A stretch of DNA of 64,000 nucleotides from Planctomycetota bacterium. GTDB lineage: Bacteria; Planctomycetota; PLA2; JAEUHO01. This document shows positions 7,015 through 25,493 of this stretch, piece by piece. The notes under the pieces were generated by a model, which saw nothing but the letters and a program-made list of their open reading frames with translations, did no database searches and was not told the origin of the DNA. The stretch lies in NCBI GenBank assembly GCA_046350655.1, contig JAXMAB010000004.1:1005225-1069224 (forward strand), in the 5' to 3' direction. The first letter of the stretch is position 1. The number at the start of each line of letters is the position of its first letter. Position numbers and translations under genes: made by a program.

Positions 7015-7400
7015 CGCGCGAGGCCCCGGGCGGCGGTCAGGGGTTCGGGGACGCGAGGCCCGGTGGCCCGCGCGTCCCGGGGCCACGTCCGCGACCGGGC
7101 CTCGCGGTCCCGGACATCGTCCGGTTCCGCCCAACGGGGACCGGCACCCAATGGCGGAACCGGCGCGGGCGGCGATCCGCCAATAAACGACCGGCACGTA
7201 TTGGCGGGGACCGGCACCGAATGGCGGAACCAGCACGGGGGGTGTCCATCGACGGACGACCGGCGTCGATGGGCACGGGGGGCGATCCGCCAATCAACGA
7301 CCGGCACGTAGTGGCGGATGCGGTCGGCGGCGGTCGTCGAGAGGGGCGCCGGCCAGCGGGCCTCGCGTACCGGAGGCTCGGGGATCGCGCCCAGAGCGAA
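7015..7400. repeat. cluster of REP-like palindromes and GACCGGCAC-loop hairpin units between the AI-2E gene and the 3-prime end of the giant gene
   Basis: CGCGAGGCCCGG / CCGGGCCTCGCGGTCCC arms at 7061-7106. Units GGTTCCGCCCAACGGGGACCGGCACCCAATGGCGGAACC, GGCGATCCGCCAATAAACGACCGGCACGTATTGGCGG, GGGACCGGCACCGAATGGCGGAACC and GGCGATCCGCCAATCAACGACCGGCACGTAGTGGCGGATGCGG. Confidence 0.5.
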
Positions 7401-7684
7401 CGCCGGCGGCGGGGCCCGGCTCGGGCGAGTGGTGGCCAGGCCGCCTGCGGCCCGGCCTCCCTGCGACGTGCGCCTGCCGAGACTTCTCGCGCGCTACGTC
7501 GGGTCGATGTTGGTGCCGGCCGCCGTGAGATCGAGCAGCGTCCCGAGATCGACCAGCGTCGGGGGCTCGTAGGGCGCGGTGGCGGGGCGGGAATCGACGT
7601 GGGCCATGGCGAGGGAATGAAACACCAAAGGGGTCCGAGGGTCAACCGGGGAATCAGGCTCGGCCGGGGGCGGGGCCCCCGGGG

Positions 7685-10600
7685 TCAGCGGCGGTCGCCG
7701 CCCTTGGGGCGGTCCTTGCCCGCTTCGGGCGCGCGGGGGGTGGCGGAGCGGTCGTTCTTGTCGTTGCGGTCGTCCTTCTTGTCGTTGCCCCGCTCCTTGC
7801 CCTTGTCCTTGCCGTCGCCGCCGTCCTTGCCGCCGCGATCGCCGGGGACCGGGCAGACGTCCGGCTTCGGGGGCGGCGGGCAGGTGGGGACGGCGTCCGG
7901 GCAGGCCGCGGGGCCGTTCGTGCCGCGGTTGAAGGCCTTGAGGGTGCGGTGGAGGAGGACGGCGCGCTCCTCGGCGAGGCCGCAGAAGCCGCGGCAGCCC
8001 TGGACGAGCAGGCAGCCCGCCTCGTCGATCGCGTCGGCGACCTTCCGGGACGGGGTGTTGCCCGCGGCGACGTTGAGCTGTGCGGCGATGTAGGCCTGGG
8101 CGAGGGCGACCCACGCGTCGTCCTTGGCGGAGGCGTCGAGGATGGAGCGCCAGGTGCGGCCGCAGAGGCGGCGCGACTCGGCGCCGTCGAGCGGCCACGG
8201 GACGCGCGTGGCGGCGCAGGCGCCGTCGCGGTGGACGGCGCGCCACCAGCCGACGTCGCGGACGCAGGTGGTCGGGGGCGGCGGCGGCTCCCAGCACGCG
8301 AACGGGACGACCGAGGCGACGGCGAAGTCGGGGACGTCGTCGCACCAGAGCGGGGTCCAGTTGCGGGGGAACGTGGCGCCGGGCACGAGGGACGCGCGGG
8401 TGAACGTGTCGGCGGCGGCCTCGCCGACGCCGTTGACGACGACCTCGAGGCGGAACGGGCCGTCGAAGAAGCCGCCGTCGATCGTGCCCGGGTCGGCGGT
8501 CACGCAGACGCGGACCTTGGCGTAGCCGTCGACGACCGTGAGGCCTTCGACGCGGAGGACGCCGTTGGCGCCGACGGCGGTGCCGGGGAACGCGCCGGTG
8601 TAGCCGAGGCAGACGAGGTCGCGGATGTCGCCGGCGCGCGTGCCGCGGTCGACGCGGACGTACACGTCGAAGTCGCGGGTGTGCGGGTCGGCGAGCCAGA
8701 CGCTGGCTTCGAAGCAGGCTTCGTGGACGCGCGGGTCGGTGCCCGGGTCGCACGTCGGCGGCGCGGCGCGGTAGCCGAAGTCCTTCGTGAGGTCGGTGGA
8801 GCCGCCGGTGACGGCCGCCGGGACCGTCGCGGTCGCCGGGAACGTGCGGGTGAGGCCGGTGGGCAGCGTGCTCTCGACGACGCGGAGCCGGTAGGCGCCG
8901 TCGAGGAGGCCGGGGAAGAGGTAGGAGCCGCCGGGGCCGGTCAGCTGCGAGCCGACGACGCGCCCGGCGGCGTCGAGCAGCTCGACGGTGACGCCGGCGA
9001 GGCCCGGCTCGCCGGTGGGGTCCTGGAGGCCGTCGCCGTCGGCGTCGAGCCACACGCGGCCGCCGAGCGCGACGCGCGGGGCGCCGAAGCCGAAGTCCTT
9101 CGTGCGGTCCGTGGAGGCGTTCGTGACGGTCGCGGACTGCTGCAGGCCGCCCGTGGTGGACACGAGGCCCGGCGGCAGCGACGCCGCGACGACGCGGACG
9201 GTGTAGGCCCCGTTCGCGAGGCCGTCGAAGAGGTAGGCGCCGTCGGGGCCGGTGACCTTCGACGCGACGGGCTGGCCCGCGGCGTTCAGCAGTTCGAGCG
9301 TCACGCCCGGCAGCCCGGGCTCGCCGGGATCCTGGAGGCCGTCGCCGTCCGTGTCGGCCCAGACACGGTCGCCGATCGCGCCCGTGGGCGGGGGCGGCGG
9401 CGGGGGCGTCGAGGTGTGGAAGCCGAACTCGAGGCCGGTGACGTCGTTGCCGTTCGTGATCGTCGCGGGGCGGGAGGTGGGCGTGGTGGCGTTGTAGTCC
9501 GCGGGGACCGAGCCCGGCTGGACGCGCACCGTGTACGAGCCGTCGGGCAGGTGATCGAAGGTGTACGTGCCGTCGGGGCCGGTGGTGGTGGTCGCGACGA
9601 CATTGCCGTTGCGGTCGACGAGCTCGACCACCGCGCCCGGGATGCCGGGCTCGCCCGCGTCGGTCGTGCCGTCGCCGTCGGTGTCGTTGAACACGCGGCC
9701 GGTGATCGTGCCCGAGGGCTGGTAGCCGAAGTCCTTCGAGAGATCGGTCGAGGCGTTGAGCACCGTCGCGGCCTGCTGCGTGCCTCCGAACGTGTTCGTG
9801 AGGCCCGTGGGCAGCGTCGCCGGCACGACGCGCACCGTGTAGGTGCCGTCGGCGAGCCCGTCGAACAGGTAGCCACCCGCCGAGTTCGTGACCTCGGTCG
9901 CGATGACCTGGCCCGCCGCATTCAGCAGTTCGAGCGTCACGCGGGAGATGCCGTCTTCACCGGCGTCCTGGACGCCGTCGCCGTCGACGTCGAACCACAC
10001 GCGATCGCCGATCGCACCCGTGGGCGAGTCGAAGCCGAAGTTGAGGCCGGTGACGTCGCTGCCGCCCGTGATCACGGCCGGGAGCGACGTCGGCGTCGTG
10101 GCGTTGAGGCCGGCCGGAACGCTGCCGGGCTGGACCCGCACCGTGTAGGCGCCGTCGGGCAGGTGATCGAAGGTGTAGGTGCCGTCGGGGCCGGTCGTGG
10201 TGGTCGTGACGACGTTGCCGTTCGCATCGACCAGCTCGACCACCGCACCCGGGATGCCGGGCTCGCCGGCGTCGGTCGTGCCGTCGCCGTCGGTGTCGTT
10301 GAAAACGCGCCCGGTGATCGTGCCCGAGGGCTGGTAGCCGAAGTCCTTCGAGAGATCGGTCGAGGCGTTCGTGACCGTGGCGCTCTGCTGCGCGCCGCCG
10401 AACGTGTTCGTCAGGCCCGCCGGGAGCGTGGCCGGCACGACGCGCACGGTGTAGGTGCCGTCCGCGAGGCCGTCGAACAGGTAGCCGCCCGCCGAGTTCG
10501 TGACCTCGGTCGCGATGACCTGGCCCGCCGCGTTGACGAGCTCGAGCGTCACGCCGGAGATGCCGTCCTCGCCGGAGTCCTGGACGCCGTCGCCATCGAC

Positions 10601-13600
10601 GTCGAACCACACGCGATCGCCGATCGCACCCGTGGGCGAGTCGTAGCCGAAGTTGAGGCCGGTGACGTCGTTGCCGTTTGCAACGACCGCCGGGAGCGAG
10701 GTCGGCGTGGTGGCGTTGAGGCCGGCGGGCACGCTGCCGGGCTGGACGCGCACCGTGTAGGCGCCGTCCGGCAGGTGGTCGAACGTGTACGTGCCGTCGG
10801 GGCCGGTCGTCCTCGTGGCGACGACGTTGCCGTTCGCATCGACCAGCTCGACGATCGTGCCGGGGATGCCGGGCTCGCCCGCGTCGGTCGTGCCGTCGCC
10901 GTCGGTGTCGTTGAACACGCGACCGGTAATCGTGCCGGACGGCTGGTAGCCGAAGTCCTTCGAGAGGTCGGTGGACGCGTTCGTGACCGTGGCGCTCTGC
11001 TGCGCGCCGCCGAACGTGTTCGTCAGGCCCGCCGGGAGCGTGGCCGGCACGACGCGCACGGTGTACGTGCCGTCGGCGAGGCCGTCGAAGAGGTAGCCCC
11101 CGGCCGAGTTCGTGACCTCGGTCGCGATGACCTGGCCCGCCGCGTTGACCAGCTCGAGCGTCACGCCGGAGATGCCGTCCTCGCCGGCGTCCTGGACGCC
11201 GTCGCCGTCGACGTCGAACCACACGCGGTCGCCGATGGCGCCCGTCGGCGAGTCGTAGCCGAAGTTGAGGCCGGTCACGTCGTTGCCGCCTGCAACGACC
11301 GCCGGGAGCGACGTCGGCGTGGTGGCGTTGAGGCCCGCCGGGACGCTGCCCGGCTGGACGCGCACCGTGTACGAGCCGTCGGGCAGGTGATCGAAGGTGT
11401 ACGACCCGTCGGGGCCGGTCGTGGTGGTCGTGACGACTGTGCCGTTGCTGTCCACCAACTCGACGATCGCGCCGGGGATGCCCGGCTCGCCGGCGTCGGT
11501 GGTTCCGTCGCCGTCAATGTCGTTGAAGACGCGGCCGGTGATCGTGCCCGAGGGCTGGTAGCCGAAGTCCTTCGAGAGATCGGTCGACGCGCTCGTGACC
11601 GTGGCGCTCTGCTGCGTGCCGCCGAACGTGTTCGTGAGGCCCGCCGGGAGCGTGGCCGGCACGACGCGCACCACGTAGGTGCCGTCCGCGAGGCCGTCGA
11701 AGAGGTAGCCACCGGCCGAGTTCGTGACCTCGGTCGCGATGACCTGGCCCGCCGCGTTGCGCAGTTCGAGCGTCACGCCGGAGATGCCGTCCTCGCCGGC
11801 GTCCTGGACACCGTCGCCATCGACATCGAACCACACGCGATCGCCGAGCGCGCCCGTGGGCGAGTCGTAGCCGAAGTTCAGACCGGTGACGTCGCTGCCG
11901 CCGACGATGTCCGCGGGCAGCGACGCGGGCGTCGTCGCGTTGAGGCCGGCCGGGACGCTGCCGGGCTGGACGCGCACCGTGTACGCGCCGTCGGGCAGGT
12001 GATCGAAGGTGTAGGTGCCGTCGGGGCCGGTCGTGGTGGTCGCGACGACGTTGCCGTTGCTGTCGACGAGCTCGACCACCGCACCCGGGATGCCCGGCTC
12101 GCCGGCGTCGGTCGTGCCGTCGCCGTCGGTGTCGTTGAACACGCGGCCGGTGATCGTGCCCGAGGGCTGGTAGCCGAAGTCTCTCGAGAGATCGGTCGAG
12201 GCGTTGAGCACCGTCGCGGCCTGCTGCGTGCCGCCGAACGTGTTCGTGAGGCCCGCCGGGAGCGTGGCCTGCACGACGCGCACGGTGTAGGTGCCGTCGG
12301 CGAGGCCGTCGAACAGGTAGCCACCCGCCGAGTTCGTGACCTCGGTCGCGATGACCTGGCCCGCCGCGTTGCGCAGTTCGAGCGTCACGCCGGAGATGCC
12401 GTCCTCGCCGGCGTCCTGGACGCCGTCGCCATCGACGTCGAACCACACGCGATCGCCGAGGGCGCCGGTGGGCGAGTCGTAGCCGAAGTTGAGGCCGGTG
12501 ACGTCGTTGCCGTTCGTGATCGTCGCGGGGAGCGAGGTCGGCGTGGTGGCGTTGAGGCCGGCCGGCACGCTGCCGGGCTGGACGCGCACGGTGTACGCGC
12601 CGTCGGGCAGGTGATCGAAGGTGTAGGTGCCGTCGGGGCCGGTCGTGGTGGTACCGACGACGTTGCCGTTCGCGTCCACCAGTTCGACGATCGCGCCGGG
12701 GATGCCGGGCTCGCCGGCGTCGGTCGTGCCGTCGGCGTCGACGTCGTTGAAGACGCGCCCGGTGATGGTGCCCGAGGGCTGGTAGCCGAAGTCTTTCGAG
12801 AGGTCGGTGGACGCGTTCGTGACGGTGGCCGACTGTTGCGTGCCGCCGAACGTGTTCGTCAGGCCCGCCGGGAGGGTCGCCGGCACGACGCGCACCACGT
12901 AGGTGCCGTCGGCGAGGCCGTCGAAGAGGTAGCCACCGGCCGAGTTCGTGACCTCGGTCGCGATGACCTGGCCCGCGGCGTTGCGCAGTTCGAGCATCAC
13001 GCCGGAGATGCCGTCCTCGCCGGCGTCCTGGACGCCGTCGCCATCGACGTCGAACCACACGCGGTCGCCGATGGCGCCCGTGGGGGAGTCGTAGCCGAAG
13101 TTGAGGCCCGTGACGTCGCTGCCGCCCGTGATCGTCGCAGGGAGCGAGGTCGGCGTCGTGGCGTTGAGGCCGGCCGGGACGCTGCCGGGCTGGACGCGCA
13201 CGGTGTAGGCGCCGTCGGGCAGGTGATCGAAGGTGTAGGTGCCGTCGGGGCCGGTCGTGGTGGTCGCGACGACGTCGCCGTTGCTGTCGACGAGCTCGAC
13301 CACCGCGCCCGGGATGCCCGGCTCGCCGGCGTCGGTCGTGCCGTCGCCGTCGGTGTCGTTGAACACGCGACCGGTGATCGTGCCGGACGGCTGGTAGCCG
13401 AAGTCCTTCGAGAGATCGGTCGAGGCGTTCGTGACCGTGGCGCTCTGCTGCGCGCCGCCGAACGTGTTCGTCAGGCCCGCCGGGAGCGTGGCCGGCACGA
13501 CGCGCACCGTGTAGGTGCCGTCGGCGAGGCCGTCGAACAGGTAGCCGCCCGCCGAGTTCGTGACCTCGGTGGCGACCACCTGACCCGAGGCGTTGACGAG

Positions 13601-16600
13601 CTCGAGCGTCACGCCGGAGATGCCGTCCTCGCCGGCGTCCTGGACGCCGTCGCCGTCGACGTCGAACCACACGCGGTCGCCGATGGCGCCCGTGGGGGAG
13701 TCGTAGCCGAAGTTGAGACCGGTGATGTCGTTGCCGCTGACGATGTTCGCGGGCAGCGACGTCGGCGTCGTGGCGTTGAGGCCGGCCGGGACGCTGCCCG
13801 GCTGGACGCGCACCGTGTACGCGCCGTCGGGCAGGTGATCGAACGTGTACGTGCCGTCGGGGCCGGTGGTAGTGGTCGCGACGACGTTGCCGTTGCTGTC
13901 GACGAGCTCGACCACCGCACCCGGGATGCCGGGCTCGCCGGCGTCGGTCGTGCCGTCGCCGTCGGTGTCGTTGAACACGCGGCCGGCGATCGTGCCCGAG
14001 GGCTGGTAGCCGAAGTCCTTCGAGAGGTCGGTCGAGGCGTTGAGCACCGTCGCGGCCTGCTGCGCGCCGCCGAACGTGTTCGTCAGGCCCGCCGGGAGCG
14101 TGGCCGGGACGACGCGCACCGTGTAGGTGTCGTCGGCGAGACCGTCGAACAGGTAGCCGCCCGCCGAGTTCGTGACCTCGGTCGCGACCACCTGACCCGA
14201 GGCGTTGACGAGCTCGAGGCTGACACCCGAGATGCCGTCCTCGCCGGCGTCCTGGACGCCGTCGCCATCGACGTCGAACCACACGCGGTCGCCGATCGCG
14301 CCGGTGGGCGAGTCGTAGCCGAAGTTGAGGCCGGTGACGTCGTTGCCGCCGACGATGTTCGCGGGCAGGGACGAAGGCGTCGTCGCGTTGAGGCCGGCCG
14401 GAACGCTGCCGGGCTGGACGCGCACCGTGTACGCGCCGTCGGGCAGGTGGTCGAACGTGTAGGACCCGTCGGGGCCGGTCGTGGTGGTCGCGACGACGTT
14501 GCCCTTCGCGTCCACCAGTTCGACGATCGCGCCGGGGATGCCGGGCTCGCCGGCGTCGGTCGTGCCGTTGCCGTCGGTGTCGTTGAACACGCGACCGGTG
14601 ATCGTTCCCGAGGGCTGGTAGCCGAAGTCCTTCGAGAGATCGGTCGACGCGCTCGTCACGGTGGCCGACTGCTGCGCACCGCCGAACGTGTTCGTCAGGC
14701 CCGCCGGGAGCGTGGCCGGCACGACGCGCACCACGTAGGTGCCGTCCGCGAGGCCGTCGAAGAGGTAACCGCCCGCCGAGTTCGTGACCTCGGTCGCGAT
14801 GACCTGGCCCGCCGCGTTGACGAGCTCGAGCGTCACGCCGGAGATGCCCGCCTCGCCGGCGTCCTGGACACCGTCTCCGTCGACGTCGAACCACACGCGG
14901 TCGCCGATCGCGCCCGTGGGCGAGTCGTAGCCGAAGTCGAGGCCGGTGACGTCGTTGCCGCCCGAGATCGTCGCGGGGAGCGAGGTCGGCGTCGTCGCGT
15001 TGAGGCCGGCCGGCACGCTGCCCGGCTGGACCCGCACCGTGTAGGCGCCGTCGGGCAGGTGGTCGAACGTGTACGTGCCGTCGGGGCCGGTCGTGGTGGT
15101 CGTGACGACGTTGCCGTTGCTGTCCACCAACTCGACGACCGCGCCGGGGATGCCGGGCTCGCCGACGTCGGTGGTGCCGTCGCCGTCGGTGTCGTTGAAC
15201 ACGCGGCCGGTGATGGTGCCCGAGGGCTGGTAGCCGAAGTCCTTCGAGAGATCGGTCGAGGCGTTGAGCACCGTCGCGGCCTGCTGCGTGCCGCCGAACG
15301 TGTTGGTCAGGCCCGCCGGGAGCGTGGCCGGCACGACGCGCACCGTGTAGGTGCCGTCGGCGAGACCGTCGAACAGGTACCCTCCCGCCGAGTTCGTGAC
15401 CTCGGTCGCGATGACCTGGCCCGCCGCGTTGACGAGCTCGAGGGTGACACCCGAGATGCCGTCCTCGCCGGCGTCCTGGACGCCGTCGCCGTCGACGTCG
15501 AACCACACGCGGTCGCCGACCGCGCCCGTGGGCGAGTCGTAGCCGAAGTTGAGGCCGGTGACGTCGTTGCCGTTTGCAACGACCGCCGGGAGTGAGGTCG
15601 GCGTGGTGGCGTTGAGGCCGGCCGGGACGCTGCCGGGCTGGACGCGCACCGTGTACGCGCCATCGGGCAGGTGATCGAAGGTGTAGGTGCCGTCGGGGCC
15701 GGTCGTGGTGGTCGCGACGTCATTGCCGTTCGCATCGACCAGCTCGACCACCGCGCCCGGGATGCCGGGCTCGCCGGCGTCCGTCGTGCCGTCGCCGTCC
15801 ACGTCGTTGAAGACGCGACCGGTGATCGTGCCCGAGGGCTGGTAGCCGAAGTCCTTCGAGAGATCGGTGGACGCGTTGAGGATCGTCGCCGTCGAAGGCG
15901 AGCCGTCGGGGAACGTGCGCACGACGCCGGCCGGGAGCGTGGCCGGCACGACGCGCACCGTGTAGGTGCCGTCGGCGAGGCCGTCGAAGAGATAGCCGCC
16001 GTCGAAGTCGGTGACGTCGGTCCCGATCACCGCGCCGTTCACGTCGAGCAGTTCCAGCGTCACGCCCGGGATGCCCCGCTCGTTCGCGTCCTGCACGCCG
16101 TCGCCGTCGACGTCGAACCACACGCGGTCGCCGACCGCGCCGCCCGGCCGGCGATAGCCGTAGTCGTTGTCGAGGTCGCTGCCGCCGCCCGTCAACGTGA
16201 CCGGCGTCGTCGTCTGCCCCGGGAACGTCCGCACCGAGCCCGTCGGCAGCGTCGTCTCGTCGATCCGGACGACGTACGCGCCGTCGGGCAGCCCGAAGAA
16301 CCGGTACGTGCCGTCGGGCAGGGTCGTCGTCGTCGCGAGCACGTTCCCGTTCGCGTCGAGGAGGTCGATGCGCACGCCCTCTAGCCCCGGCTCGCCGGCC
16401 GGCGCCACGAGCCCGTTGCCGTCGCCGTCGCGCCACACGAGCCCGCCGAGAACGCCCTCGGGCCGATAGCCGAAGTCCTTCGTCAGGTCTGTCGACGCGT
16501 CGAGCACCGCCGCGGGCACCGTCGCGCCCGCCGGGAACGTCCGCACGAGCCCCGCCGGCACCGTCGCCTCGACGACGCGCACGCCGTACGCGCCGTCCGG

Positions 16601-19600
16601 CAGGCGGTCGAAGAGGTAGCGGCCGTCCGCCACGGTCTGCGTCGTCCGCAGCAGGCCGCCCGCGCCGTCGAGCAGCTCGACCGTCACGCCGACGAGACCC
16701 GGTTCGCCGAACGCGTCCTGCACGCCGTCGCCGTCGACGTCGAGCCACACGCGATCGCCGATCGCGCCCCGCGGGTCGCCCGAGCCACCGGGCCTCGCGT
16801 ACCCGAAGTCACGACCGCTCACCTCGTTCCCGCCCGCCACCGTCGCGGGCCGCGACGTGACCGTGGTCGCGTCGTACCCCGCGGGCGCGGTGCCGGGCTG
16901 GACCCGCACCGTGTACGCGCCGTCGGGGAGGTGCTCGAACGCGTACGTGCCGTCCGCCGCCGTCGTCGTCGTCGCGACGACGTTCCCGCCGCCGTCCACG
17001 AGCTCGACGCCGACGCCGGGCAGGCCGGGCTCGCCGACGTCCGCCGCGCCGTCGCGGTCCGTGTCGTCGAAGACGGTGCCGCGGACCGCGCCCGTCGGAC
17101 GGTAGCCGAAGTCCTTCGTGAGGTCCGTCGCGCCGTTCGTGACGGTGGCGGGCTGCTGCGCGCCGCCGAACGTGTTCTCGAGGCCCGACGGGAGCGTGGC
17201 CGCGACGACGCGCACCGTGTACGCGCCGTCGGGGAGCCCGCCGAAGAGGTACGTGCCGTCGCCCGCGGTCGTCGTCGTGCGGAGCACCGCGCCGCCGGCG
17301 TCGAGCAGCTCGATACCGACGCCGCCGAGGCCGGGCTCGCCCGCGTCCTGCGCGCCGTCGCCGTCCGCGTCGCGCCACACGCGGTCGCCGAGCGCGCCGG
17401 TGAAGCGGTACCCGACGTCGAGCGTCAGGTTCTGCCCGCCGATCGCGACCGCGCCGACGGGCGACGCCGTCGCCGACGTGCGGACGACGGTCTTCGGCAG
17501 CGTGGTCGCGTCCACCACGAGGCGGTACGTGCCCGCGGGCAGGCCGTCGACGAGGTAGAGGCCGTCCGTGCCCGTCGTGCGCCGGCCGAACGGGGCCGAC
17601 GTGAGGTCGTCGACGACGTCCACCACGACGCCCGGGATGCCCGGCTCGTCGGCGTCCTGCTGCGTGTCGCCGTCGAGGTCGAGCCAGATGCGGTCGCCGA
17701 CCGCGGCCGAGCCGCGGTAGCCGAAGTCGACGTTCGTCGTGGCGGCGGCCTCGACGACGGTGATGGGACGCGCGGCCGGCGGCGTCGTCGACGCGAGGCC
17801 CGGCGGCAGGCTCGAGCCCACCACGCGGACGGTCCAGGCCCCGACGGGCACGTCCTCGAAGAGGTACGCGCCGTCGTTGGCGGTGGTGCGGAACGCGCGC
17901 ACGACGCCGTTCGGGTCGACGAGCTCGAGCGACACGTTGCGCAGGCCCGGCTCCTCCGGGTCCTGCACGCCGTCGCCGTCGCGGTCGAGCCACACGCGGC
18001 CCGAGACGTCCTGCGACGGGCGGTAGCCGAAGTCCACGGGCGGCGTCGGCACGCCCGCCGTCACCGTCACGGGCACCGGCTGGCCGGGCGTCGTGCGCGT
18101 GAGCCCGTCGAGGAGCGGGTTGCCCTCGACGACGTTCACGAGGTAGTCGCCCACGGGCACCGACGTGAACTCGTACGTGCCGTCGGCGCGCGTCGTCGTC
18201 GTCGCGACGACGAGGCCGTCGCGCGTGAGGAGGCGGAGCTCGACGCCGCCGATGGGCGGCTCGCCCGCGTCGTGGACGCCGTCGCCGTCGCTGTCGCGGA
18301 ACACGGTCCCCGTCACCGAGCCGGTGGGGCGGTACCCGAAGTCGAGCGTCACGTCGGCGCCGCCCGCGGGGATCGTCGCGTTCTTGACGTCCGTCGGCGT
18401 CGTGCGGAGCGAGCCGGCGGGGGCCGTCGCGTCGAGGACCTTCACGCGGTACGTGCCCGCGTCGAGGCCGGAGAAGAGGTAGCGGCCGTCGGCGACCGTC
18501 TGCTGCGTCGAGAGCAGCACGTCCGTCTCGGACCGCAGCTCGACCGTCACGCCCGGCAGGCCCGGCTCGCCGTCGTCCTGGACGTCGTCGCCGTCGTCGT
18601 CGCGCCAGACGCGGTCGCCGACGCTGCCCGCGGGGCGGTACCCGAAGTCCGCGGTGCCGATCGCGCCGCCGGCCGGCAGCACGAGGTCGAGCGACGCCGG
18701 CGTCGTCGGCCCGTACCCGGCCGGGACGGTGGCCGTGACCACGCGGACCGTGAAGCTCCCCGCGGCCAGGTTGTCGAAGCGGTACGCGCCGTCGGCGTCC
18801 GTCGTCGTCGTGCGGAGGAACTGGCCCGCGCCGTCGAGCAACTCGAGGCCGACGCCCGGCAGGCCCGGCTCGTCGGCGGACTGCTGCCCGTCGCCGTCGC
18901 GGTCGTACCACACGCGGTCGCCGATCGTGCCGATGGGGCAGAAGCCCACGTCGAGGCCGAAGAGATTCTGGCGCGGCGCGAGCGTCCGCAGGATCGGCAG
19001 CGTCGTCGACGTCGTGCGCCCCGCGAGCGCGGGCTGGCCGGGGACCACCGACACGCTCCACGCGCCGGCCGGGACCGGGTCGAACCGCCACGCGCCGAGC
19101 GCGTCCGTCACGGCGAACAGCGGCGCCGCGCCGGGCACGTCGGTCCGCAGCGCCTGCACGCGCACGCCCGCGAGCGGCGGGTCCACGCGCACGTCGTCGT
19201 CGCCGTCGCAGTCGAGGTCCTCGAAGACGCGGCCCGACAGGCTCTGGCCGTCCACCGGCCGCACCTCGAGGTTCGTCCGCAGGAACCACGAGTTGCGGGC
19301 GTCGAGGTTGTGCATGACGACGACCCAGTCGCCCGGCAGGCCGTCGGCCGGGATCGGGATCGCCTCGAAGCCGGTCTCGGTGCCCGTCTCCTGCGAGACG
19401 TTGCCCGAGAGGTCGAACAGGACGACGCGCAGCGTGCCCGCCGGGTCGTACAGCTCGAGCCACGGGCTGCCGTCGACGCTCGGCTCCGTGGACGTCGGCA
19501 GCCGGTAGCCGGAGTTGTCGCGCGCGACGCCGTTCACCGTGTACGGCCGGCCGTCGTCGGGCGGCACGCCGGGCGCCGACGGGCTCACGGTGCCGTTGCG

Positions 19601-20596
19601 CGCGACGCCGCCGGCGTCGTCCACGTCGTCCGCGTCGCCCTCCTCGAGCACCACCCGCGTCAGGAACTGCGCCCAGCTCTCGCCGCGGCGCGGCACCATC
19701 CGCACGCGCACCGAGAACGACCCCGCGTACCGGTTCACGTACGGGTCGCCCGCCGGGTACCGCACCGCCGGCGCCACGTCGCCCTGCAGCGCGAGCGCGC
19801 CGTTCCAGCTCGGCGGCGGCTCGAGCACGTCCGGGTAGTGGTCGCGCGAGACCGAGTACGGGAACTGGGTGCCGTCCTCGCGCGCGAACAGGAGGTTGCG
19901 CGCGTCCACGACGCCGCCGATGAACCCCGCCAGCAGGATCTGGTCGGCGCCCGGGTCCTGGGCGAGCACGCCGTTCGCCGCGACCTTGTAGCCGTTGATG
20001 GGGGCTCGCCCGCCGCCCGTCGGCACCGGCAGCCGGTACGACACGACGAGCCGATACGCGTACTCCTCGGTCTCCGTGACCCGGGCGTTCGGGTGGTGCG
20101 GGGCGTCGACCAGGAACTCCCACCGGCTGTCGATCGCGTTCGCGAACACCTTCGTCACGTCCGCGCTCTGCGCGCCGGGCGCCTCGGACTCGCCGACGGC
20201 GACCACCGTCGCCGGGTGGTCGGGCGAGTTCGTCGTCACGACGTACCGGACCACCGACCCGTCCGGCAGCGGCGCGCCGTCGGGGCCGTTCGAGAGGAGG
20301 TTCTGGTCCCAGAGCCCGGCCGCGTTGCCGTCGAAGATCGCGAGCCGCAGGCGGTCGGTGTTCAGGCTGCAGGTGACGCCGAACTGCGCCGGCTGCGACA
20401 GCGACGAGTTGCCGTCGGCGATCAGGTCGTGGAAGACGCCGCTGTGGCTGTCGCGGTCCGGCAGGCCCTGGAACTCCGCCCCCGCGACGAGTTCGTCGTT
20501 GTCGAACGGCTCGGCGGCCTGGGTCGACAGCGGCAGGAACGCGAGGAGGGCCGGGGCGGCGGCCGCCGCCCATCGGCGGAGCTTCGGGAAGCGCAT
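7685..20596 (-). CDS. giant secreted repeat protein (4,303 aa): signal peptide, ~560-aa N-terminal module, roughly 30 or more SdrD-B/Cna-B-like Ca-binding repeat domains (DxDGDG motifs), Cys-rich C-terminal module and a K/D-rich tail
   Basis: Track ORF 7685..20629. Start chosen at M12 (ATG 20596, with GGAGG 8 nt upstream), giving MRFPKLRRWAAAAAPALLAFLPLSTQAAEP. Repeated units ...AIGDRVWFDVDGDGVQDAGEDGISGVTLELVNAAGQVIATEVTNSAGGYLFDGLADGTYTVRVVPATLPAGLTNTFGG... and ...GTITGRVFNDTDGDGTTDAGEPGIPGAVVELVDSNGNVVATTTTGPDGTYTFDHLPDGAYTVRVQPGSVPAGLNATTP... Codons have almost uniformly G/C third positions. Confidence 0.85.
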   Translation of the reverse strand: MRFPKLRRWAAAAAPALLAFLPLSTQAAEPFDNDELVAGAEFQGLPDRDSHSGVFHDLIADGNSSLSQPAQFGVTCSLNTDRLRLAIFDGNAAGLWDQNLLSNGPDGAPLPDGSVVRYVVTTNSPDHPATVVAVGESEAPGAQSADVTKVFANAIDSRWEFLVDAPHHPNARVTETEEYAYRLVVSYRLPVPTGGGRAPINGYKVAANGVLAQDPGADQILLAGFIGGVVDARNLLFAREDGTQFPYSVSRDHYPDVLEPPPSWNGALALQGDVAPAVRYPAGDPYVNRYAGSFSVRVRMVPRRGESWAQFLTRVVLEEGDADDVDDAGGVARNGTVSPSAPGVPPDDGRPYTVNGVARDNSGYRLPTSTEPSVDGSPWLELYDPAGTLRVVLFDLSGNVSQETGTETGFEAIPIPADGLPGDWVVVMHNLDARNSWFLRTNLEVRPVDGQSLSGRVFEDLDCDGDDDVRVDPPLAGVRVQALRTDVPGAAPLFAVTDALGAWRFDPVPAGAWSVSVVPGQPALAGRTTSTTLPILRTLAPRQNLFGLDVGFCPIGTIGDRVWYDRDGDGQQSADEPGLPGVGLELLDGAGQFLRTTTTDADGAYRFDNLAAGSFTVRVVTATVPAGYGPTTPASLDLVLPAGGAIGTADFGYRPAGSVGDRVWRDDDGDDVQDDGEPGLPGVTVELRSETDVLLSTQQTVADGRYLFSGLDAGTYRVKVLDATAPAGSLRTTPTDVKNATIPAGGADVTLDFGYRPTGSVTGTVFRDSDGDGVHDAGEPPIGGVELRLLTRDGLVVATTTTRADGTYEFTSVPVGDYLVNVVEGNPLLDGLTRTTPGQPVPVTVTAGVPTPPVDFGYRPSQDVSGRVWLDRDGDGVQDPEEPGLRNVSLELVDPNGVVRAFRTTANDGAYLFEDVPVGAWTVRVVGSSLPPGLASTTPPAARPITVVEAAATTNVDFGYRGSAAVGDRIWLDLDGDTQQDADEPGIPGVVVDVVDDLTSAPFGRRTTGTDGLYLVDGLPAGTYRLVVDATTLPKTVVRTSATASPVGAVAIGGQNLTLDVGYRFTGALGDRVWRDADGDGAQDAGEPGLGGVGIELLDAGGAVLRTTTTAGDGTYLFGGLPDGAYTVRVVAATLPSGLENTFGGAQQPATVTNGATDLTKDFGYRPTGAVRGTVFDDTDRDGAADVGEPGLPGVGVELVDGGGNVVATTTTAADGTYAFEHLPDGAYTVRVQPGTAPAGYDATTVTSRPATVAGGNEVSGRDFGYARPGGSGDPRGAIGDRVWLDVDGDGVQDAFGEPGLVGVTVELLDGAGGLLRTTQTVADGRYLFDRLPDGAYGVRVVEATVPAGLVRTFPAGATVPAAVLDASTDLTKDFGYRPEGVLGGLVWRDGDGNGLVAPAGEPGLEGVRIDLLDANGNVLATTTTLPDGTYRFFGLPDGAYVVRIDETTLPTGSVRTFPGQTTTPVTLTGGGSDLDNDYGYRRPGGAVGDRVWFDVDGDGVQDANERGIPGVTLELLDVNGAVIGTDVTDFDGGYLFDGLADGTYTVRVVPATLPAGVVRTFPDGSPSTATILNASTDLSKDFGYQPSGTITGRVFNDVDGDGTTDAGEPGIPGAVVELVDANGNDVATTTTGPDGTYTFDHLPDGAYTVRVQPGSVPAGLNATTPTSLPAVVANGNDVTGLNFGYDSPTGAVGDRVWFDVDGDGVQDAGEDGISGVTLELVNAAGQVIATEVTNSAGGYLFDGLADGTYTVRVVPATLPAGLTNTFGGTQQAATVLNASTDLSKDFGYQPSGTITGRVFNDTDGDGTTDVGEPGIPGAVVELVDSNGNVVTTTTTGPDGTYTFDHLPDGAYTVRVQPGSVPAGLNATTPTSLPATISGGNDVTGLDFGYDSPTGAIGDRVWFDVDGDGVQDAGEAGISGVTLELVNAAGQVIATEVTNSAGGYLFDGLADGTYVVRVVPATLPAGLTNTFGGAQQSATVTSASTDLSKDFGYQPSGTITGRVFNDTDGNGTTDAGEPGIPGAIVELVDAKGNVVATTTTGPDGSYTFDHLPDGAYTVRVQPGSVPAGLNATTPSSLPANIVGGNDVTGLNFGYDSPTGAIGDRVWFDVDGDGVQDAGEDGISGVSLELVNASGQVVATEVTNSAGGYLFDGLADDTYTVRVVPATLPAGLTNTFGGAQQAATVLNASTDLSKDFGYQPSGTIAGRVFNDTDGDGTTDAGEPGIPGAVVELVDSNGNVVATTTTGPDGTYTFDHLPDGAYTVRVQPGSVPAGLNATTPTSLPANIVSGNDITGLNFGYDSPTGAIGDRVWFDVDGDGVQDAGEDGISGVTLELVNASGQVVATEVTNSAGGYLFDGLADGTYTVRVVPATLPAGLTNTFGGAQQSATVTNASTDLSKDFGYQPSGTITGRVFNDTDGDGTTDAGEPGIPGAVVELVDSNGDVVATTTTGPDGTYTFDHLPDGAYTVRVQPGSVPAGLNATTPTSLPATITGGSDVTGLNFGYDSPTGAIGDRVWFDVDGDGVQDAGEDGISGVMLELRNAAGQVIATEVTNSAGGYLFDGLADGTYVVRVVPATLPAGLTNTFGGTQQSATVTNASTDLSKDFGYQPSGTITGRVFNDVDADGTTDAGEPGIPGAIVELVDANGNVVGTTTTGPDGTYTFDHLPDGAYTVRVQPGSVPAGLNATTPTSLPATITNGNDVTGLNFGYDSPTGALGDRVWFDVDGDGVQDAGEDGISGVTLELRNAAGQVIATEVTNSAGGYLFDGLADGTYTVRVVQATLPAGLTNTFGGTQQAATVLNASTDLSRDFGYQPSGTITGRVFNDTDGDGTTDAGEPGIPGAVVELVDSNGNVVATTTTGPDGTYTFDHLPDGAYTVRVQPGSVPAGLNATTPASLPADIVGGSDVTGLNFGYDSPTGALGDRVWFDVDGDGVQDAGEDGISGVTLELRNAAGQVIATEVTNSAGGYLFDGLADGTYVVRVVPATLPAGLTNTFGGTQQSATVTSASTDLSKDFGYQPSGTITGRVFNDIDGDGTTDAGEPGIPGAIVELVDSNGTVVTTTTTGPDGSYTFDHLPDGSYTVRVQPGSVPAGLNATTPTSLPAVVAGGNDVTGLNFGYDSPTGAIGDRVWFDVDGDGVQDAGEDGISGVTLELVNAAGQVIATEVTNSAGGYLFDGLADGTYTVRVVPATLPAGLTNTFGGAQQSATVTNASTDLSKDFGYQPSGTITGRVFNDTDGDGTTDAGEPGIPGTIVELVDANGNVVATRTTGPDGTYTFDHLPDGAYTVRVQPGSVPAGLNATTPTSLPAVVANGNDVTGLNFGYDSPTGAIGDRVWFDVDGDGVQDSGEDGISGVTLELVNAAGQVIATEVTNSAGGYLFDGLADGTYTVRVVPATLPAGLTNTFGGAQQSATVTNASTDLSKDFGYQPSGTITGRVFNDTDGDGTTDAGEPGIPGAVVELVDANGNVVTTTTTGPDGTYTFDHLPDGAYTVRVQPGSVPAGLNATTPTSLPAVITGGSDVTGLNFGFDSPTGAIGDRVWFDVDGDGVQDAGEDGISRVTLELLNAAGQVIATEVTNSAGGYLFDGLADGTYTVRVVPATLPTGLTNTFGGTQQAATVLNASTDLSKDFGYQPSGTITGRVFNDTDGDGTTDAGEPGIPGAVVELVDRNGNVVATTTTGPDGTYTFDHLPDGSYTVRVQPGSVPADYNATTPTSRPATITNGNDVTGLEFGFHTSTPPPPPPPTGAIGDRVWADTDGDGLQDPGEPGLPGVTLELLNAAGQPVASKVTGPDGAYLFDGLANGAYTVRVVAASLPPGLVSTTGGLQQSATVTNASTDRTKDFGFGAPRVALGGRVWLDADGDGLQDPTGEPGLAGVTVELLDAAGRVVGSQLTGPGGSYLFPGLLDGAYRLRVVESTLPTGLTRTFPATATVPAAVTGGSTDLTKDFGYRAAPPTCDPGTDPRVHEACFEASVWLADPHTRDFDVYVRVDRGTRAGDIRDLVCLGYTGAFPGTAVGANGVLRVEGLTVVDGYAKVRVCVTADPGTIDGGFFDGPFRLEVVVNGVGEAAADTFTRASLVPGATFPRNWTPLWCDDVPDFAVASVVPFACWEPPPPPTTCVRDVGWWRAVHRDGACAATRVPWPLDGAESRRLCGRTWRSILDASAKDDAWVALAQAYIAAQLNVAAGNTPSRKVADAIDEAGCLLVQGCRGFCGLAEERAVLLHRTLKAFNRGTNGPAACPDAVPTCPPPPKPDVCPVPGDRGGKDGGDGKDKGKERGNDKKDDRNDKNDRSATPRAPEAGKDRPKGGDRR
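9400..15600. repeat. intragenic near-identical tandem DNA repeats (period alternating about 600/630 bp, about 10 copies; more diverged copies on both sides)
   Basis: The string CCGAAGTTGAGGCCGGTGACGTCG(T/C)TGCCG recurs at about 9421, 10021, 10651, 11251, 11881, 12481, 13081, 13711, 14311 and 15541. Each period encodes two ~100-aa SdrD-B-like domains. Confidence 0.7.
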
Positions 20597-20839
20597 ACAG
20601 ACCTCCTGCGGGGAGAGGACCGGAGGCAACTCCGGTGCCGGGCCCTCATCCGGCCTTCATAACGACGGGGAGGGACGCGCCGGGCGCACCTCAAGTCGCC
20701 ATGGATCAAGGACTTACGTCGGCGCGCAACCGACCCGTTGCCGGTCGATTCCGCGACGTCGAGCGGGCGGGGTGCTGCGGAATTCGGACAAGTCCCCCGG
20801 CGCCGATGTCGCACCGCCGCGACACGGACCGTGCGGCCT

Positions 20840-21060
20840 CGCGGGGACCGCGTCCCCGGTCCCGGGACGCAAGGCCCGGCGGCCGGCGTGACCCGCCGAT
20901 CGACGGCCGGTTCCGCCATTCTGGGACCGGCACGAAATGGCGGAACCGACCCGCGGGACCGCGAGGCCCGGTCGCCGATCTCGCCCCCGTCGACGAACGG
21001 CATGGGCGGGGGGGGCGGCGCGGGCCACCGGGCCTCGCGGTCCTGGGAGGAACGCCGCGT
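20840..21060. repeat. composite intergenic repeat between the giant gene and its paralog: REP-like arms plus the unit CCGGTTCCGCCATTCTGGGACCGGCACGAAATGGCGGAACC
   Basis: GCGGCCTCGCGGGGACC, GGACCGCGAGGCCCGG and CCGGGCCTCGCGGTCC arms. The central hairpin has a 12-bp stem GGTTCCGCCATT/AATGGCGGAACC. Confidence 0.5.
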
Positions 21061-21081
21061 CGCCGTGCTCCCCGGGAAACG

Positions 21082-21110
21082 AAAAACGGCCGGCCCTCGC
21101 GGGCCGGCCG
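21082..21110 (-). terminator. intrinsic terminator of the 981-aa paralog gene
   Basis: On the minus strand, a 10-bp GC stem (CGGCCGGCCC gcga GGGCCGGCCG) is followed by TTTTT, shortly after the TAA stop. Adjacent is a perfect 20-bp palindrome GCGGCGCGCATGCGCGCCGC at 21121-21140. Confidence 0.6.
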
Positions 21111-21155
21111 TCCAGGAGGCGCGGCGCGCATGCGCGCCGCAACCGATGGGTTCGC

Positions 21156-24101
21156 TTACTTCTTGCCGCCCTTGTTGCCCGGCTTGCCCGGAGCGGTGCC
21201 GACGCCGTCGTTCACCGGCGGGTTGCCCGGGGGCTGGGGATCGAGGCCGTTGCCGACGCCGTTGTTGCCCTTCGGCTTGTCGTCGCACTTGTCCTTGGGC
21301 TTCTCGCACTTGGACTTGTCGTCGTCGCACTTGTCCTTGGGCTTCTCGCACTTGGACTTGTCGTCGTCGCAGCGGTCCTTGGGCTTGTCGCACTTGGACT
21401 TGTCGTCGTCGCAACGGTCCTTGGGCTTGTCGCACTTGGACTTGTCGTCGTCGCACTTGTCCTTGGGCTTGTCGCCCTTCGGCTTGTCGTCGCAGCGGTC
21501 CTTCGGCTCGTCGCACTTCGGCTTCGGATCGCACTTCGGCTTCGGGTCGCACTTCGGCGGCGGGGGCGGGCAGCAGGGCACCTTCACGATGCACGCCACC
21601 GGGCCGGCCTTGCCGTCGTTGTAGCCCTTCAGCACCAGGTAGACGATCCGGGCGCGCTCCTCGGCGAGGCCGCAGAGCCCGCCGCAGTTCTGCTCGAGCA
21701 GCGCCGCAGCCTCCTCAAGGGCGGCCGCGACCGTCTTCGGGGTGCAGGCCCCGCCGGCGGCGTTGAGCTTCGCGACGATCCACTGCTGGGCGAGGGCCAC
21801 CCACGCGTCGCACTTGGCGCTGGCCTTGAGGATCGACAGCCACGACTTGCCGCAGAGGACCTTGTCCTCGCCGCCGTCGACCGGCCACGCGATCTTCGTC
21901 GCCTCGCAGGTGCCGTACTTGTTGACCGTCTTCCACCAGGCCAGGCCCTTGACGCAGCCGTCCGTGCACGGCTTGTCCGGCCAGCACTCCCAGGCGAGGT
22001 ACGACTTCAGGAAGAAGTCGGGGACGTCATCGCACCAGAGCGGCTTCCAGTCGGCCGGGAACGTCCCGCCGATCTTGAGCGACTTGCAGGAGAACTCGCC
22101 GCAGGCCGCCTCGCCGACGCAGTTGACGACGACCGTCAGCTTCATCGTGCCGTCGAAGTAGCCCATCGGGAACCACGCCGGGTCGGCCGTGGCGCACACG
22201 AGGACCTTGGCGTAGCCGTCGACGACCTTGATGTCCTTGACCTTCAGGACGCCGTTGCGGCCGGTCTGCTCGCCGGGGAAGGCCCCGTCGTAGCCGAAGC
22301 AGGCGAGGTCCACCATCGGCGGGTCGCACTCGCAGCCCTTGTCGAGCCGGACGTAGACGTCGAAGGACGTCGTGGTCGGGTCGGCGAGCCACACGCTCGA
22401 CTCGAAGCACACCTCGTGGAGGCGGCCCGTCTCGCCGCAGTCGCAGGTCTTCTCGCAGTAGCCGATGTCGGCGTCCTTGAGGTTGACCGACGGGACGACC
22501 GTCTTCGACAGCGGCTGGACGATCGCCGACGTCATGTTCGGCACGTCCGAGTCGACCGAGATGTTGTACGTCCCGGCCGGGATCGGGTTGACCGAGTAGA
22601 AGCCGTTCGCGTCCGTCACGCGGAAGATCGGCGCCGCGGGGGCGTCGGTGCGCTGGATGCGGACCGTCAGGCCGGAGAGGGCCGGCTCGACGTCGGCCTC
22701 GTCGTCACCGTCGCAATTCAGGTCGCGGTAGACGCGGCCCTCGAGCGACTGCGTGAGCGGGTTGAACTCGACGTTCGCGCGGAGGAACCACGAGTTGCGC
22801 GCGTCGAGGTTGTGCATCCGCAGCGTCCAGAGGCCCGGGATGCCGTCGAGCGGCACCGGGATCTTCTCGAACGCGGCGCCGGTGTTGTCCTCCTGGGCCA
22901 CGTTGCCCGAGAGGTCGAGCAGCGTCACGCGGACCACGCCGTTCGGGTCCACGAGCTCGAGCCACGGGCTGCCCGCGTCGCTCGGCTGGGCCGCGAACGG
23001 GAGGCGGTAGCCGGAGTTGTCGTGCGCGATGCCGCGCTGGTCGACGTAGGCGCGGCCGTCGTCCGGCGGGATGCCGGCGTTGCTCGGGCTGGGCATGCCC
23101 TCGGGGCTGATGCCCGAGAGGTCGTCCACGTCGTCGGCGTCACCCTCCTCGAGGATGAGGTTCTCGACGAAGTTCACCCAGCTCTGGCCGGGGCTCGGGA
23201 CGAGGCGGATGCCGAGCTCGAAGTCGCCCTTGTACTTGTTCACGAACGGGTCGGGGCTCGGGAACCGGACGGCCGGGAGCGCGGCGGCCGGGCCGTTCAG
23301 GATCGAGTTCAGGTTCGCGCTGGGCTCGAGCACGTCCGGGTAGTGGTCGCGCGAGACCGAGTACTCGTCCCCGTTCACCGGCGAGCCGGGGAACTTGAAG
23401 AGCATGTTGCGCGAGTCGACGACGCCGCCGATGAACCCGCCGGTCAGCAGCTGGCCGACCTGGACGGGGATCAGGCCGAAGGGCGCGTTGATCGCGACCT
23501 TGTAGCCGTTGATCGGGGCGATGTTGCTGCCCGACGGCGTCGGCTGGCGGTACTTCACCAGCAGGCGGTAGACGTGGCGGCCGTCCGGGAGCAGCGCGTT
23601 CGGGTGGTGCGGGCCGTCGTAGAGGAACTGCCAGCGGCCGTCCACGGCGTACGTGAAGATCGCCGCGCCCGGACGGGGCGCCGCGCTCTCCGAGTCGGCG
23701 ATGGCGACCACCGTCTCCGGGGCCGTCGGCGACGCGGTGACGAGGTCGTACTCGACGACCGAGCCGTCCGGCACCGGGTTGCCGTTCGCGTCGTTGTCGA
23801 TCTTGTTCTGGTCCCAGAGGCCGCCCGCGTTGCCGTCGAAGATGGCGACGCGGAGCGAGGTGCTCTCGGCCGGGGCCGCGATCCCGAAGACGTTCGGGCC
23901 GGTCACCGAGCTCGAGCCGACCGCGATGAGGTCCAGGAACACGCCGCTGTGCGTGTCCTTGTCCGGGAGGGCGAGGAACTCCGAGCCGGCGACCAGCTCG
24001 TCGTTGTCGAAAGGCTCGGCGGCGAAGGCCGGCGCCGTCAAGAAGCACGCCGCGGCCGAGAGGCCGAGCAGCGCGCGCGAGAACCACGTCATGCGACCCA
24101 T
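21156..24101 (-). CDS. 981-aa secreted paralog of the giant protein (shared N-terminal module and Cys-rich C-terminal module; no SdrD-B array; K/D/C-rich tandem-repeat tail)
   Basis: Signal peptide MGRMTWFSRALLGLSAAACFLTAPAFAAEPFDNDELVAG. Aligns residue-by-residue with the giant protein N-terminus (AAEPFDNDELVAG.., PINGYKV.., SVSRDHYPDVLEP.., LEEGDADDVDD.., NLDARNSWFLR..) and with its C-terminal module (HEVCFESSVWLADP.., WCDDVPDF.., DAWVALAQ.., CGGLCGLAEERA..). Confidence 0.85.
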   Translation of the reverse strand: MGRMTWFSRALLGLSAAACFLTAPAFAAEPFDNDELVAGSEFLALPDKDTHSGVFLDLIAVGSSSVTGPNVFGIAAPAESTSLRVAIFDGNAGGLWDQNKIDNDANGNPVPDGSVVEYDLVTASPTAPETVVAIADSESAAPRPGAAIFTYAVDGRWQFLYDGPHHPNALLPDGRHVYRLLVKYRQPTPSGSNIAPINGYKVAINAPFGLIPVQVGQLLTGGFIGGVVDSRNMLFKFPGSPVNGDEYSVSRDHYPDVLEPSANLNSILNGPAAALPAVRFPSPDPFVNKYKGDFELGIRLVPSPGQSWVNFVENLILEEGDADDVDDLSGISPEGMPSPSNAGIPPDDGRAYVDQRGIAHDNSGYRLPFAAQPSDAGSPWLELVDPNGVVRVTLLDLSGNVAQEDNTGAAFEKIPVPLDGIPGLWTLRMHNLDARNSWFLRANVEFNPLTQSLEGRVYRDLNCDGDDEADVEPALSGLTVRIQRTDAPAAPIFRVTDANGFYSVNPIPAGTYNISVDSDVPNMTSAIVQPLSKTVVPSVNLKDADIGYCEKTCDCGETGRLHEVCFESSVWLADPTTTSFDVYVRLDKGCECDPPMVDLACFGYDGAFPGEQTGRNGVLKVKDIKVVDGYAKVLVCATADPAWFPMGYFDGTMKLTVVVNCVGEAACGEFSCKSLKIGGTFPADWKPLWCDDVPDFFLKSYLAWECWPDKPCTDGCVKGLAWWKTVNKYGTCEATKIAWPVDGGEDKVLCGKSWLSILKASAKCDAWVALAQQWIVAKLNAAGGACTPKTVAAALEEAAALLEQNCGGLCGLAEERARIVYLVLKGYNDGKAGPVACIVKVPCCPPPPPKCDPKPKCDPKPKCDEPKDRCDDKPKGDKPKDKCDDDKSKCDKPKDRCDDDKSKCDKPKDRCDDDKSKCEKPKDKCDDDKSKCEKPKDKCDDKPKGNNGVGNGLDPQPPGNPPVNDGVGTAPGKPGNKGGKK

Positions 24102-24382
24102 GTGCTTTGCAATCCCTTCCTGGGGAGGGGGACCGGCGTCGGCCGGTCGGACGCGGGACAGTAGCAGAATCCGAGCCGAATGCGGTCCCAGGGTGGATTG
24201 TTTCGTAACTATTTTTCCAGTAACGAGTTACGAGTTTTGGCGTCGTGGGGGGGCGGACGGCCGCCGTTCATCGCGCGCGACGGACGTTCATTTCGCACGA
24301 CATCCCCCTCGCCGCCCGGGATTCCTCCCACCGCGGGCCGCTCTGCCTACAGAATCCCCCCGTCCCCCAGGGGGACCTCCCC

Positions 24383-25493
<1,111 letters not shown>

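Follow-up and report, generated by a model that had tools for sequence, protein, structure and literature searches.

The window analysed here, a stretch of 64,000 nucleotides from contig JAXMAB010000004.1 of an uncultured Planctomycetota bacterium (GenBank assembly GCA_046350655.1), carries two adjacent genes for predicted secreted proteins of very different size, a giant form of 4,303 aa and a short form of 981 aa. The window is rich in G+C (72–78%), and G+C at third codon positions is 0.97 in both genes, a codon-position signature of real genes. Their open reading frames (ORFs) span 7685–20629 and 21156–24101 on the minus strand, and the start of the giant is taken as the ATG at 20596. The features of the pair are as follows.

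7685..20596, minus strand: giant gene, 4,303 aa from the ATG at 20596; signal peptide, N module, 34 SdrD_B domains, C module and basic tail
20516..20596, minus strand: signal peptide of the giant, predicted Sec type, residues 1–27, ending ...STQA before AEPFDNDE; read from the sequence
19247..20515, minus strand: N module of the giant, residues 28–450; Cys-poor, acidic, uncharacterised, 53% identical to that of the short form
8777..19246, minus strand: stalk of the giant, ~34 SdrD_B domains, residues 451–3940 (Pfam and segmentation), the first being the neck
9374..16132, minus strand: stalk core, 11 tandem double units of 204 aa or 612 nt each, residues 1489–3741
7901..8776, minus strand: C module of the giant, residues 3941–4232; beta-sandwich C1 and helical C2, 13 Cys, 47% identical to that of the short form
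7685..7900, minus strand: tail of the giant; Pro-rich linker, K/D/R-rich basic tail (pI 9.1) and stop, without a hydrophobic anchor
21156..24101, minus strand: short gene, 981 aa; signal peptide, N module, one neck domain, C module and long tail
22752..24020, minus strand: N module of the short form, residues 28–450; AlphaFold2 model beta-rich
22455..22751, minus strand: SdrD_B-like neck domain of the short form, residues 451–549; aligns with the first stalk domain of the giant
21567..22454, minus strand: C module of the short form, residues 550–845; Ig-like beta-sandwich C1 and helical bundle C2, 23 Cys
21156..21566, minus strand: tail of the short form; CCPPPPP linker, Cys-Lys-Asp heptad repeats and terminal motif KGNNGVGNGLDPQPPGNPPVNDG..GKPGNKGGKK
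21084..21113, minus strand: terminator-like hairpin with a 13-bp stem and a T-run, 43 nt past the stop codon of the short gene

The initial annotation proposed that the two genes are paralogues of shared architecture, each with a signal peptide, and both proposals are borne out. By BLASTP, residues 27–549 of the short form align with residues 27–553 of the giant at 53% identity over 541 aa (E 1e-156), and residues 452–837 align with 3843–4232 at 47% identity over 394 aa (E 3e-102). The signal peptide of the giant has a basic n-region, a hydrophobic core and small residues at −3/−1; it ends in ...TQA and that of the short form in ...AFA, each before AEPF, again as read from the sequences. The motifs quoted earlier as common to both proteins are all present, although the last of them differs, reading CGGLCGLAEERA in the short form and CRGFCGLAEERA in the giant. 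The N-terminal module, first put at ~560 aa, has to be redrawn: what the two proteins share there is a novel module of ~424 aa and, behind it, a conserved SdrD_B-like neck domain of ~100 aa. In the giant, ~33 further SdrD_B domains are inserted between this neck and the Cys-rich C module, which measures ~290 aa. Composition along the chain is strikingly polar, with pI 4.4 in the N module, 4.1 in the stalk and 8.5–9.1 in the charged tails in which both paralogues end, and 44 D-x-[DN]-x-[DN] motifs are spread across the whole giant protein. The hairpin lies 3' of the short gene and therefore suggests that the short and giant genes are separate transcription units.

Stalk repeats and the conserved locus

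The stalk was described from the outset as a series of SdrD_B domains, and Pfam agrees: it recognises 34 stretches of this domain in the giant (2053 bits) and, in the short form, a single sub-threshold one at residues 455–519 (27.1 bits against a cut-off of 29.7). Tandem Repeats Finder reports 20.7 copies of a period of 306 in the stalk core. Across the double units (10 of the 11 compared), DNA identity is 84–94% with a mean of 89.7%, which amounts to differences at ~10% of positions, or ~60 per unit. Codon differences among these ten units are synonymous in 1549 cases and non-synonymous in 746, and the units appear, from this pattern, to be under purifying selection.

The family occupies a fixed locus, in which prfB is followed by two or three tandem paralogues, a small ORF and perM; this order is kept in the related loci L001, L002, L004, L005 and L007/L008. 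The flanks consist of (mfd), rnc, dps or a nitroreductase gene, and purH ahead of prfB, with perM (AI-2E family), pyk and typA on the other side. The loci differ in the number and length of family members as follows.

Window and L001: short and giant
L002: short and long, the long one cut by the contig end
L004: two short members and a third whose N and C modules lie ~2.5 kb apart
L005: two members ahead of perM, of which the second is short and the first runs off the contig end
L007/L008 (ENA ERZ25039503 contig_53871): short and a long member of ~10.2 kb, on a 625-kb contig

Orthologous loci carry 1, ~8, ~24–25 and 34 stalk domains, in keeping with the earlier view that the end modules are split by an expandable stalk. 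The third member of L004 is the orthologue of the giant (N module 83% and C module 75% identical), with ~2.5 kb between the two modules on a short-read contig, in which repeats can collapse, and the L008 orthologue, in an indel-ridden sequence, has ~9 double units compared with the 34 stalk domains of the giant. Because the L004 member is orthologous to the giant, the same gene appears to have stalks of very different length.

The long form of L007/L008 further combines an N module that is 84–92% identical to that of the giant over most of its length with a C module that shares 71% identity with the short paralogue of that genome but only 51% with the giant. This combination suggests that the tandem copies have undergone gene conversion or exchanged modules. 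The duplication itself is judged to be old and to predate the compared genomes, because the paralogues are only 53% and 47% identical in their end modules and genomes in which the N module of the short-form orthologue is 74% or ~60% identical already carry the pair.

End modules, tails and family distribution

The end modules were said to come from no characterised family, a statement that stands: six sub-segments covering N1, N2, C1, C2 and the tail gave no Pfam match even at E ≤ 10 and no NCBIfam match, and sequence and profile searches against the PDB returned nothing significant. An explanation of these segments by known domains was accordingly discarded. The N module contains 0–1 Cys and has a pI of 4.4. 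Its AlphaFold2 model, built from a 21-sequence alignment, is beta-rich, with a predicted local distance difference test (pLDDT) of 73.7 and a predicted template modelling score of 0.71. Judged by the strand pattern of the model, the module appears to comprise two beta-sandwich subdomains joined by low-confidence acidic loops. Foldseek searches with this model gave best TM scores of ≤0.19, all to tandem-sandwich proteins, and the likeness to carbohydrate-binding modules (CBMs) is at the level of fold only. Asp, Asn and Gly make up most of the invariant residues (FDGN..G.WD, GGFIGGVVD, EGDAD, PPDD, DLSGNV, DARN.F), and we infer a calcium-stabilised binding module rather than an enzyme. Conservation is strong in the peptide at the mature N terminus (AEPFDNDELVAG.EF.GLPDKD), which is modelled at pLDDT 53–66.

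The tails are rich in Pro, Cys, Lys and Asp. That of the short form contains five copies of a 42-nt tandem repeat (CDDDKSKCDKPKDR) at 21279–21492 and ends in KGNNGVGNGLDPQPPGNPPVNDG.GT.PGKPGN.GGKK, an ending shared by many homologues, in some of them twice, and lacking in the giant. The conserved tail motif, KGNNGVGNG(L/E/I/V/Y/T)DPQPPG(N/D/H)PPVNDG.GT.PG.PGN.GG, is seen at 21156–21270 and in the homologues P0005, P0007–P0010, P0016, P0018 and P0019; it occurs once or twice per protein, each time behind a Cys/Lys-rich spacer. Pfam does not recognise this motif, which might serve in sorting or attachment. No further copies of the end modules or of the tail motif were found elsewhere in the window. 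A sorting signal of the type IX secretion system (T9SS) was also considered and rejected, because the Por_Secre_tail matches are internal cross-matches within the repeats, the best TIGR04183 stretch lying at residues 3450–3489 (profile positions 20–59 of 72).

The family is rare. Single-sequence searches retrieved at least four and at least three relatives, and a profile search 22, mostly short forms of 830–1045 aa; the short form is thus the commonest architecture and probably the ancestral one. An exhaustive search with a hidden Markov model (HMM) of the N module gave 94 hits at E ≤ 1e-3 among 1.84 billion representatives, of which ~12 span the whole module, while most others share the first subdomain only, at their own N terminus. 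Nine distant hits scanned with Pfam each consist of an N region of no known family followed by 1–8 SdrD_B or CarboxypepD_reg domains and nothing else. When HMMs of the C module were run on all fetched proteins, C1 was found at the end of eight relatives known from the N profile only (1,443–2,340 aa), and C2 at the end of six relatives likewise retrieved through the N profile only. The layout in which N and C modules bookend the chain has thus been kept in relatives far outside the close family. Among named genomes, carriers of the family belong to Planctomycetia or are metagenome-assembled genomes of Planctomycetota, and are high in GC.

A more distant genome, L003, known from a frameshift-ridden contig, holds two further members. 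One (6587–8452) is a paralogue of 621 aa with 27% identity in the N module; it has an N-like region, one SdrD_B domain and a C1-like region. The other (10001–14795) is of middle size, with ~9 stalk repeats that carry an inserted CNGIQDP..AEHGVNGVSV segment; it is without C2 and ends just past C1 in a Pro/Cys/Lys tail.

Surroundings of the gene pair

The initial annotation held that one family of intergenic repeats flanks the pair on both sides and in between, and saw in it a plausible substrate for the duplication. The motifs GGTTCCGCCATT and GGACCGCGAGGCCCGG do occur downstream of the giant (7050–7320) and between the genes (20860–21045), but they were not found upstream of the short gene (24102–24560), and they recur in at least ten other intergenic places in the window. 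They belong to a short, GC-rich family resembling repetitive extragenic palindromic (REP) elements, exemplified by GGACCGCGAGGCCCGG and by GGTTCCGCCATT in inverted pairs, which is not specific to the gene pair. Being dispersed and absent upstream of the short gene, the repeats are rejected as a plausible cause of what is in any case an old duplication. They and the small ORF beside the giant are located as follows.

767–905, 5174–5216, 7050–7320, 20860–21045, 25536, 28257, 39031, 48540–48594, 49122 and others: REP-like motifs and hairpins
7494–7606, minus strand: 37-aa ORF (MAHVDSRPATAPYEPPTLVDLGTLLDLTAAGTNIDPT) between the giant gene and perM

The 37-aa ORF matches the NCBIfam model lasso_leader_L3 above its cut-off (22.2 against 19 bits), and its position is kept in L005 (4842–4943), L004 (14626–14709, cut by the locus end) and L008 (11228–11377). 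Its homologues always end in ...DLTAAG(T/S)xIDPT, and the "core" past the leader-like Thr has only ~9 residues. A lasso-peptide biosynthesis context was dismissed, since no such genes were present among the window ORFs scanned.

Two further neighbours were noted. The gene at 30560–33082 (minus strand, ~840 aa) has weak, partial NCBIfam matches to the SusC/RagA N-terminal region and to the surface-layer (S-layer) model of anammox Kustd1514 (E 2.6e-4), and may encode another envelope protein nearby. The RNase III gene at 28510–30477 (plus strand) has an apparent C-terminal extension of ~400 aa, of low complexity and rich in Arg, Asp, Pro and Ala; its orthologue in L007 is likewise long (582 aa).

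A candidate binding head on an adjustable stalk

We consider it about an even bet (probability roughly 0.5) that the pair encodes surface proteins of the fibrillar-adhesin or periscope kind on a calcium-stiffened stalk, in which the N module is the distal head while the C module and tail form the base near the envelope. The family would then be a small, lineage-specific group of proteins with predicted Sec export in high-GC Planctomycetota, functionally analogous to fibrillar adhesins and periscope proteins. Surface export, the choice of anchored end, the binding of calcium and a ligand-binding role of the N module are all inferred, and the orientation of the chain is proposed from its chemical polarity and by analogy with Gram-positive adhesins. 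According to this proposal, the acidic N module, with its lectin- or CBM-like beta-sandwich subdomains, would act as the distal binding head, and the SdrD_B rod would set its distance from the cell, one domain in the short form against 34 in the giant, or ~4 nm against >100 nm by our own estimate of ~4 nm per domain. The Cys-rich C module, the Pro-rich linker and the basic Cys/Lys/Asp tail would form the base, which disulfides and/or charge would keep in place within the protein-rich envelope of planctomycetes; they are the candidate anchor of proteins in which no known anchor was found. The tandem paralogues would present related heads at different heights, and recombination among the near-identical 612-nt units might let the stalk of the last paralogue grow or shrink.

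Several lines of literature are consistent with this proposal. What defines a fibrillar adhesin is the combination of an adhesive region with a repetitive stalk and a surface anchor; SdrD_B (PF17210) is one of the established stalk domains (PMC9210967). The proteins described here are likewise large, with this listed stalk domain and an unannotated N-terminal region, and such regions of fibrillar adhesins have yielded novel adhesive domains; on the other hand, no known adhesive domain or anchor was found here, and the class has been defined mostly on Firmicutes and Actinobacteria (PMC9210967). In periscope proteins such as SasG, Rib and Sgo_0707, a variable count of highly similar repeats sets how far the N-terminal domain projects, and high DNA identity between repeats allows their gain and loss (PMC8201768). 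The ~90% DNA identity of the units fits this model, and both tandem repeats of high DNA similarity and variation of repeat number among close homologues are found here. The differences are that unit identity is lower than in many periscope proteins, that no known anchor was detected, and that a single genome also holds the variation in length in fixed form, as separate tandem paralogues with 1 and 34 domains. Giant genes for surface proteins are common in Planctomycetes (PMC5177795), and the giant resembles those reported there (citing Reva and Tummler 2008) in being a gene of >10 kb for a repetitive predicted surface protein, although these end modules are not among the reported domains and a conserved short paralogue adjoins it. 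Wall preparations of planctomycetes typically contain Cys-rich proteins (PMC8567305). The YTV wall proteins of Planctomycetales (PMC8567305) share with the present pair the phylum, Cys/Pro-rich segments and a predicted envelope location, but Cys-richness is here confined to the C module and tail, and Pfam detected no YTV domain in either protein, the C module and tail being without any match.

The closest analogue, in our view, is the staphylococcal set of SdrC, SdrD and SdrE, tandem paralogues that differ in the number of their B repeats as the members of this pair do. Staphylococcal Sdr proteins resemble the pair in having a signal peptide, an N-terminal non-repeat region, a variable number of SdrD_B domains (in Sdr proteins a calcium-binding stalk) and a charged low-complexity region near the C terminus. 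The genes sdrC, sdrD and sdrE were reportedly described by Josefsson and colleagues in 1998 as lying in tandem, with paralogues of differing B-repeat number. The SdrD_B repeats are shared, whereas the A region of IgG-like (DEv) ligand-binding domains, the SD repeats and the LPXTG motif with its hydrophobic C-terminal segment, as in MSCRAMM Sdr proteins, are lacking here; the NCBIfam models MSCRAMM_SdrD and SdrC score 1718.8 and 1219.8 against cut-offs of 2500 and 1700, with their best stretches in the B-repeat part of the profiles. Giant adhesins of the RTX type, which lack a Sec signal peptide and carry C-terminal RTX repeats and a type I secretion signal, also differ from the pair, which has an N-terminal signal peptide and no Pfam match to RTX or haemolysin-type calcium-binding domains. 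The S-layer association suggested in the initial annotation is not supported, and neither protein matches the anammox Kustd1514-type S-layer model NF052345.

Some observations weigh against a surface-anchored binding protein. The N module shows no detectable similarity to proven adhesive domains, and its model is only moderately confident (pLDDT 73.7). Neither protein contains an LPXTG motif (searched as LP.[TSA]G) or a C-terminal hydrophobic segment, the maximal Kyte-Doolittle value in the last 140 aa (19-residue window) being −0.73 in the short form and 0.92 in the giant; matches to the T9SS tail models are internal ones, and the tails have no Pfam match at E ≤ 10. The neighbours of the locus are housekeeping genes, no secretion or partner gene is conserved beside it, and a Sec substrate would still have to cross the planctomycete outer membrane. 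The apparent short stalk of L004 may reflect short-read collapse. The orientation leans on composition and on the Gram-positive analogy, and expression and surface localisation are presumed.

The main rival is self-assembly, in which the N module of one molecule would bind the C module of another, and short and giant forms would co-polymerise head to tail into a surface fibre, a sheath or an S-layer-like mesh, rather than each working as a separate adhesin. We regard this as unlikely, although it ranks first among the alternatives. It could account for the co-occurrence of N1 and C1/C2 as bookends across a wider, divergent superfamily found with the N profile only, for an N-terminal peptide that is conserved yet of low pLDDT (53–66), as for a segment docking onto a partner, and for the L007/L008 long form, whose C module resembles that of the short paralogue beside it more closely than that of the orthologous giant. 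Bookend co-occurrence is, however, equally expected from a head-plus-anchor design, and no match to an S-layer family was found. More doubtful is the specific version in which the bookends are matched interfaces and the short and giant subunits of the polymer set the spacing of the mesh or fibre; the 37-aa lasso-leader-like peptide might be part of such a system. If it did exist, it would be a previously undescribed surface fibre or lattice of planctomycetes and a possible protein basis of the fibres on these cells.

Next in order comes a released or periplasmic, unanchored calcium-binding scaffold, serving as biofilm matrix or cation buffer, with tails that associate loosely by electrostatic attraction; we think this improbable. 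Such a scaffold would suit the extreme acidity of the bulk of the proteins (pI 4.1–4.4), their dozens of DxDxDG-type motifs, the lack of any recognised anchor or sorting signal, and a basic tail that has no hydrophobic segment. It fits less well with a structured Cys-rich C module kept at the protein end in all complete members, and with the ordered succession of head, stalk and base and the variation of the stalk in one paralogue only, which are typical of displayed proteins (PMC8201768).

That the giant ORF is an artefact, its repeat number inflated or collapsed by mis-assembly, is very improbable. Tandem 612-nt units over 6.7 kb are difficult to assemble, and the related short-read contig L001, which carries 94%-identical orthologues, does break within the array (~12,550–13,033) with an inverted chimeric join that looks like a reverse-complement assembly failure. 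The units of the giant, though, differ from one another by ~10% and are mutually distinguishable, and therefore are not copies of one collapsed sequence. Its frame is unbroken over 12.9 kb, and the independent 625-kb contig has a ~10.2-kb orthologue with ~9 double units. The giant is probably real, since its units are ~90% identical with mostly synonymous differences.

That the short form serves as a decoy, as the initial annotation suggested, or competes with the giant, an idea to which the sharing of head and base modules would lend itself, is the least probable of all and was given up, because the short architecture is the commonest in the family and occurs without a long partner (L005 has no long form in view, its first member being cut by the contig end), while the short gene has its own terminator-like hairpin and the heads are only 53% identical, so that the same ligand is not required.

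For a head displayed on a stalk of adjustable length, the design principle and the stalk domain are already known, while the head, base and tail are new. Giant repetitive surface proteins are, as a class, expected in Planctomycetes, and the function proposed for this pair is a putative one. If the proposal is true, the locus would define 4–5 domain families absent from Pfam and NCBIfam (N1, N2, C1, C2 and the KGNNGVGNG...PPVNDG tail motif), and would offer a natural series of rulers, with the same head and base on 1, ~8, ~25 and 34 stalk domains; the surface proteins of this phylum, and the ways in which they are anchored, are largely uncharted. The C module and tail would then be candidates for a hold, neither LPXTG- nor T9SS-based, that keeps a long protein in the planctomycete envelope.

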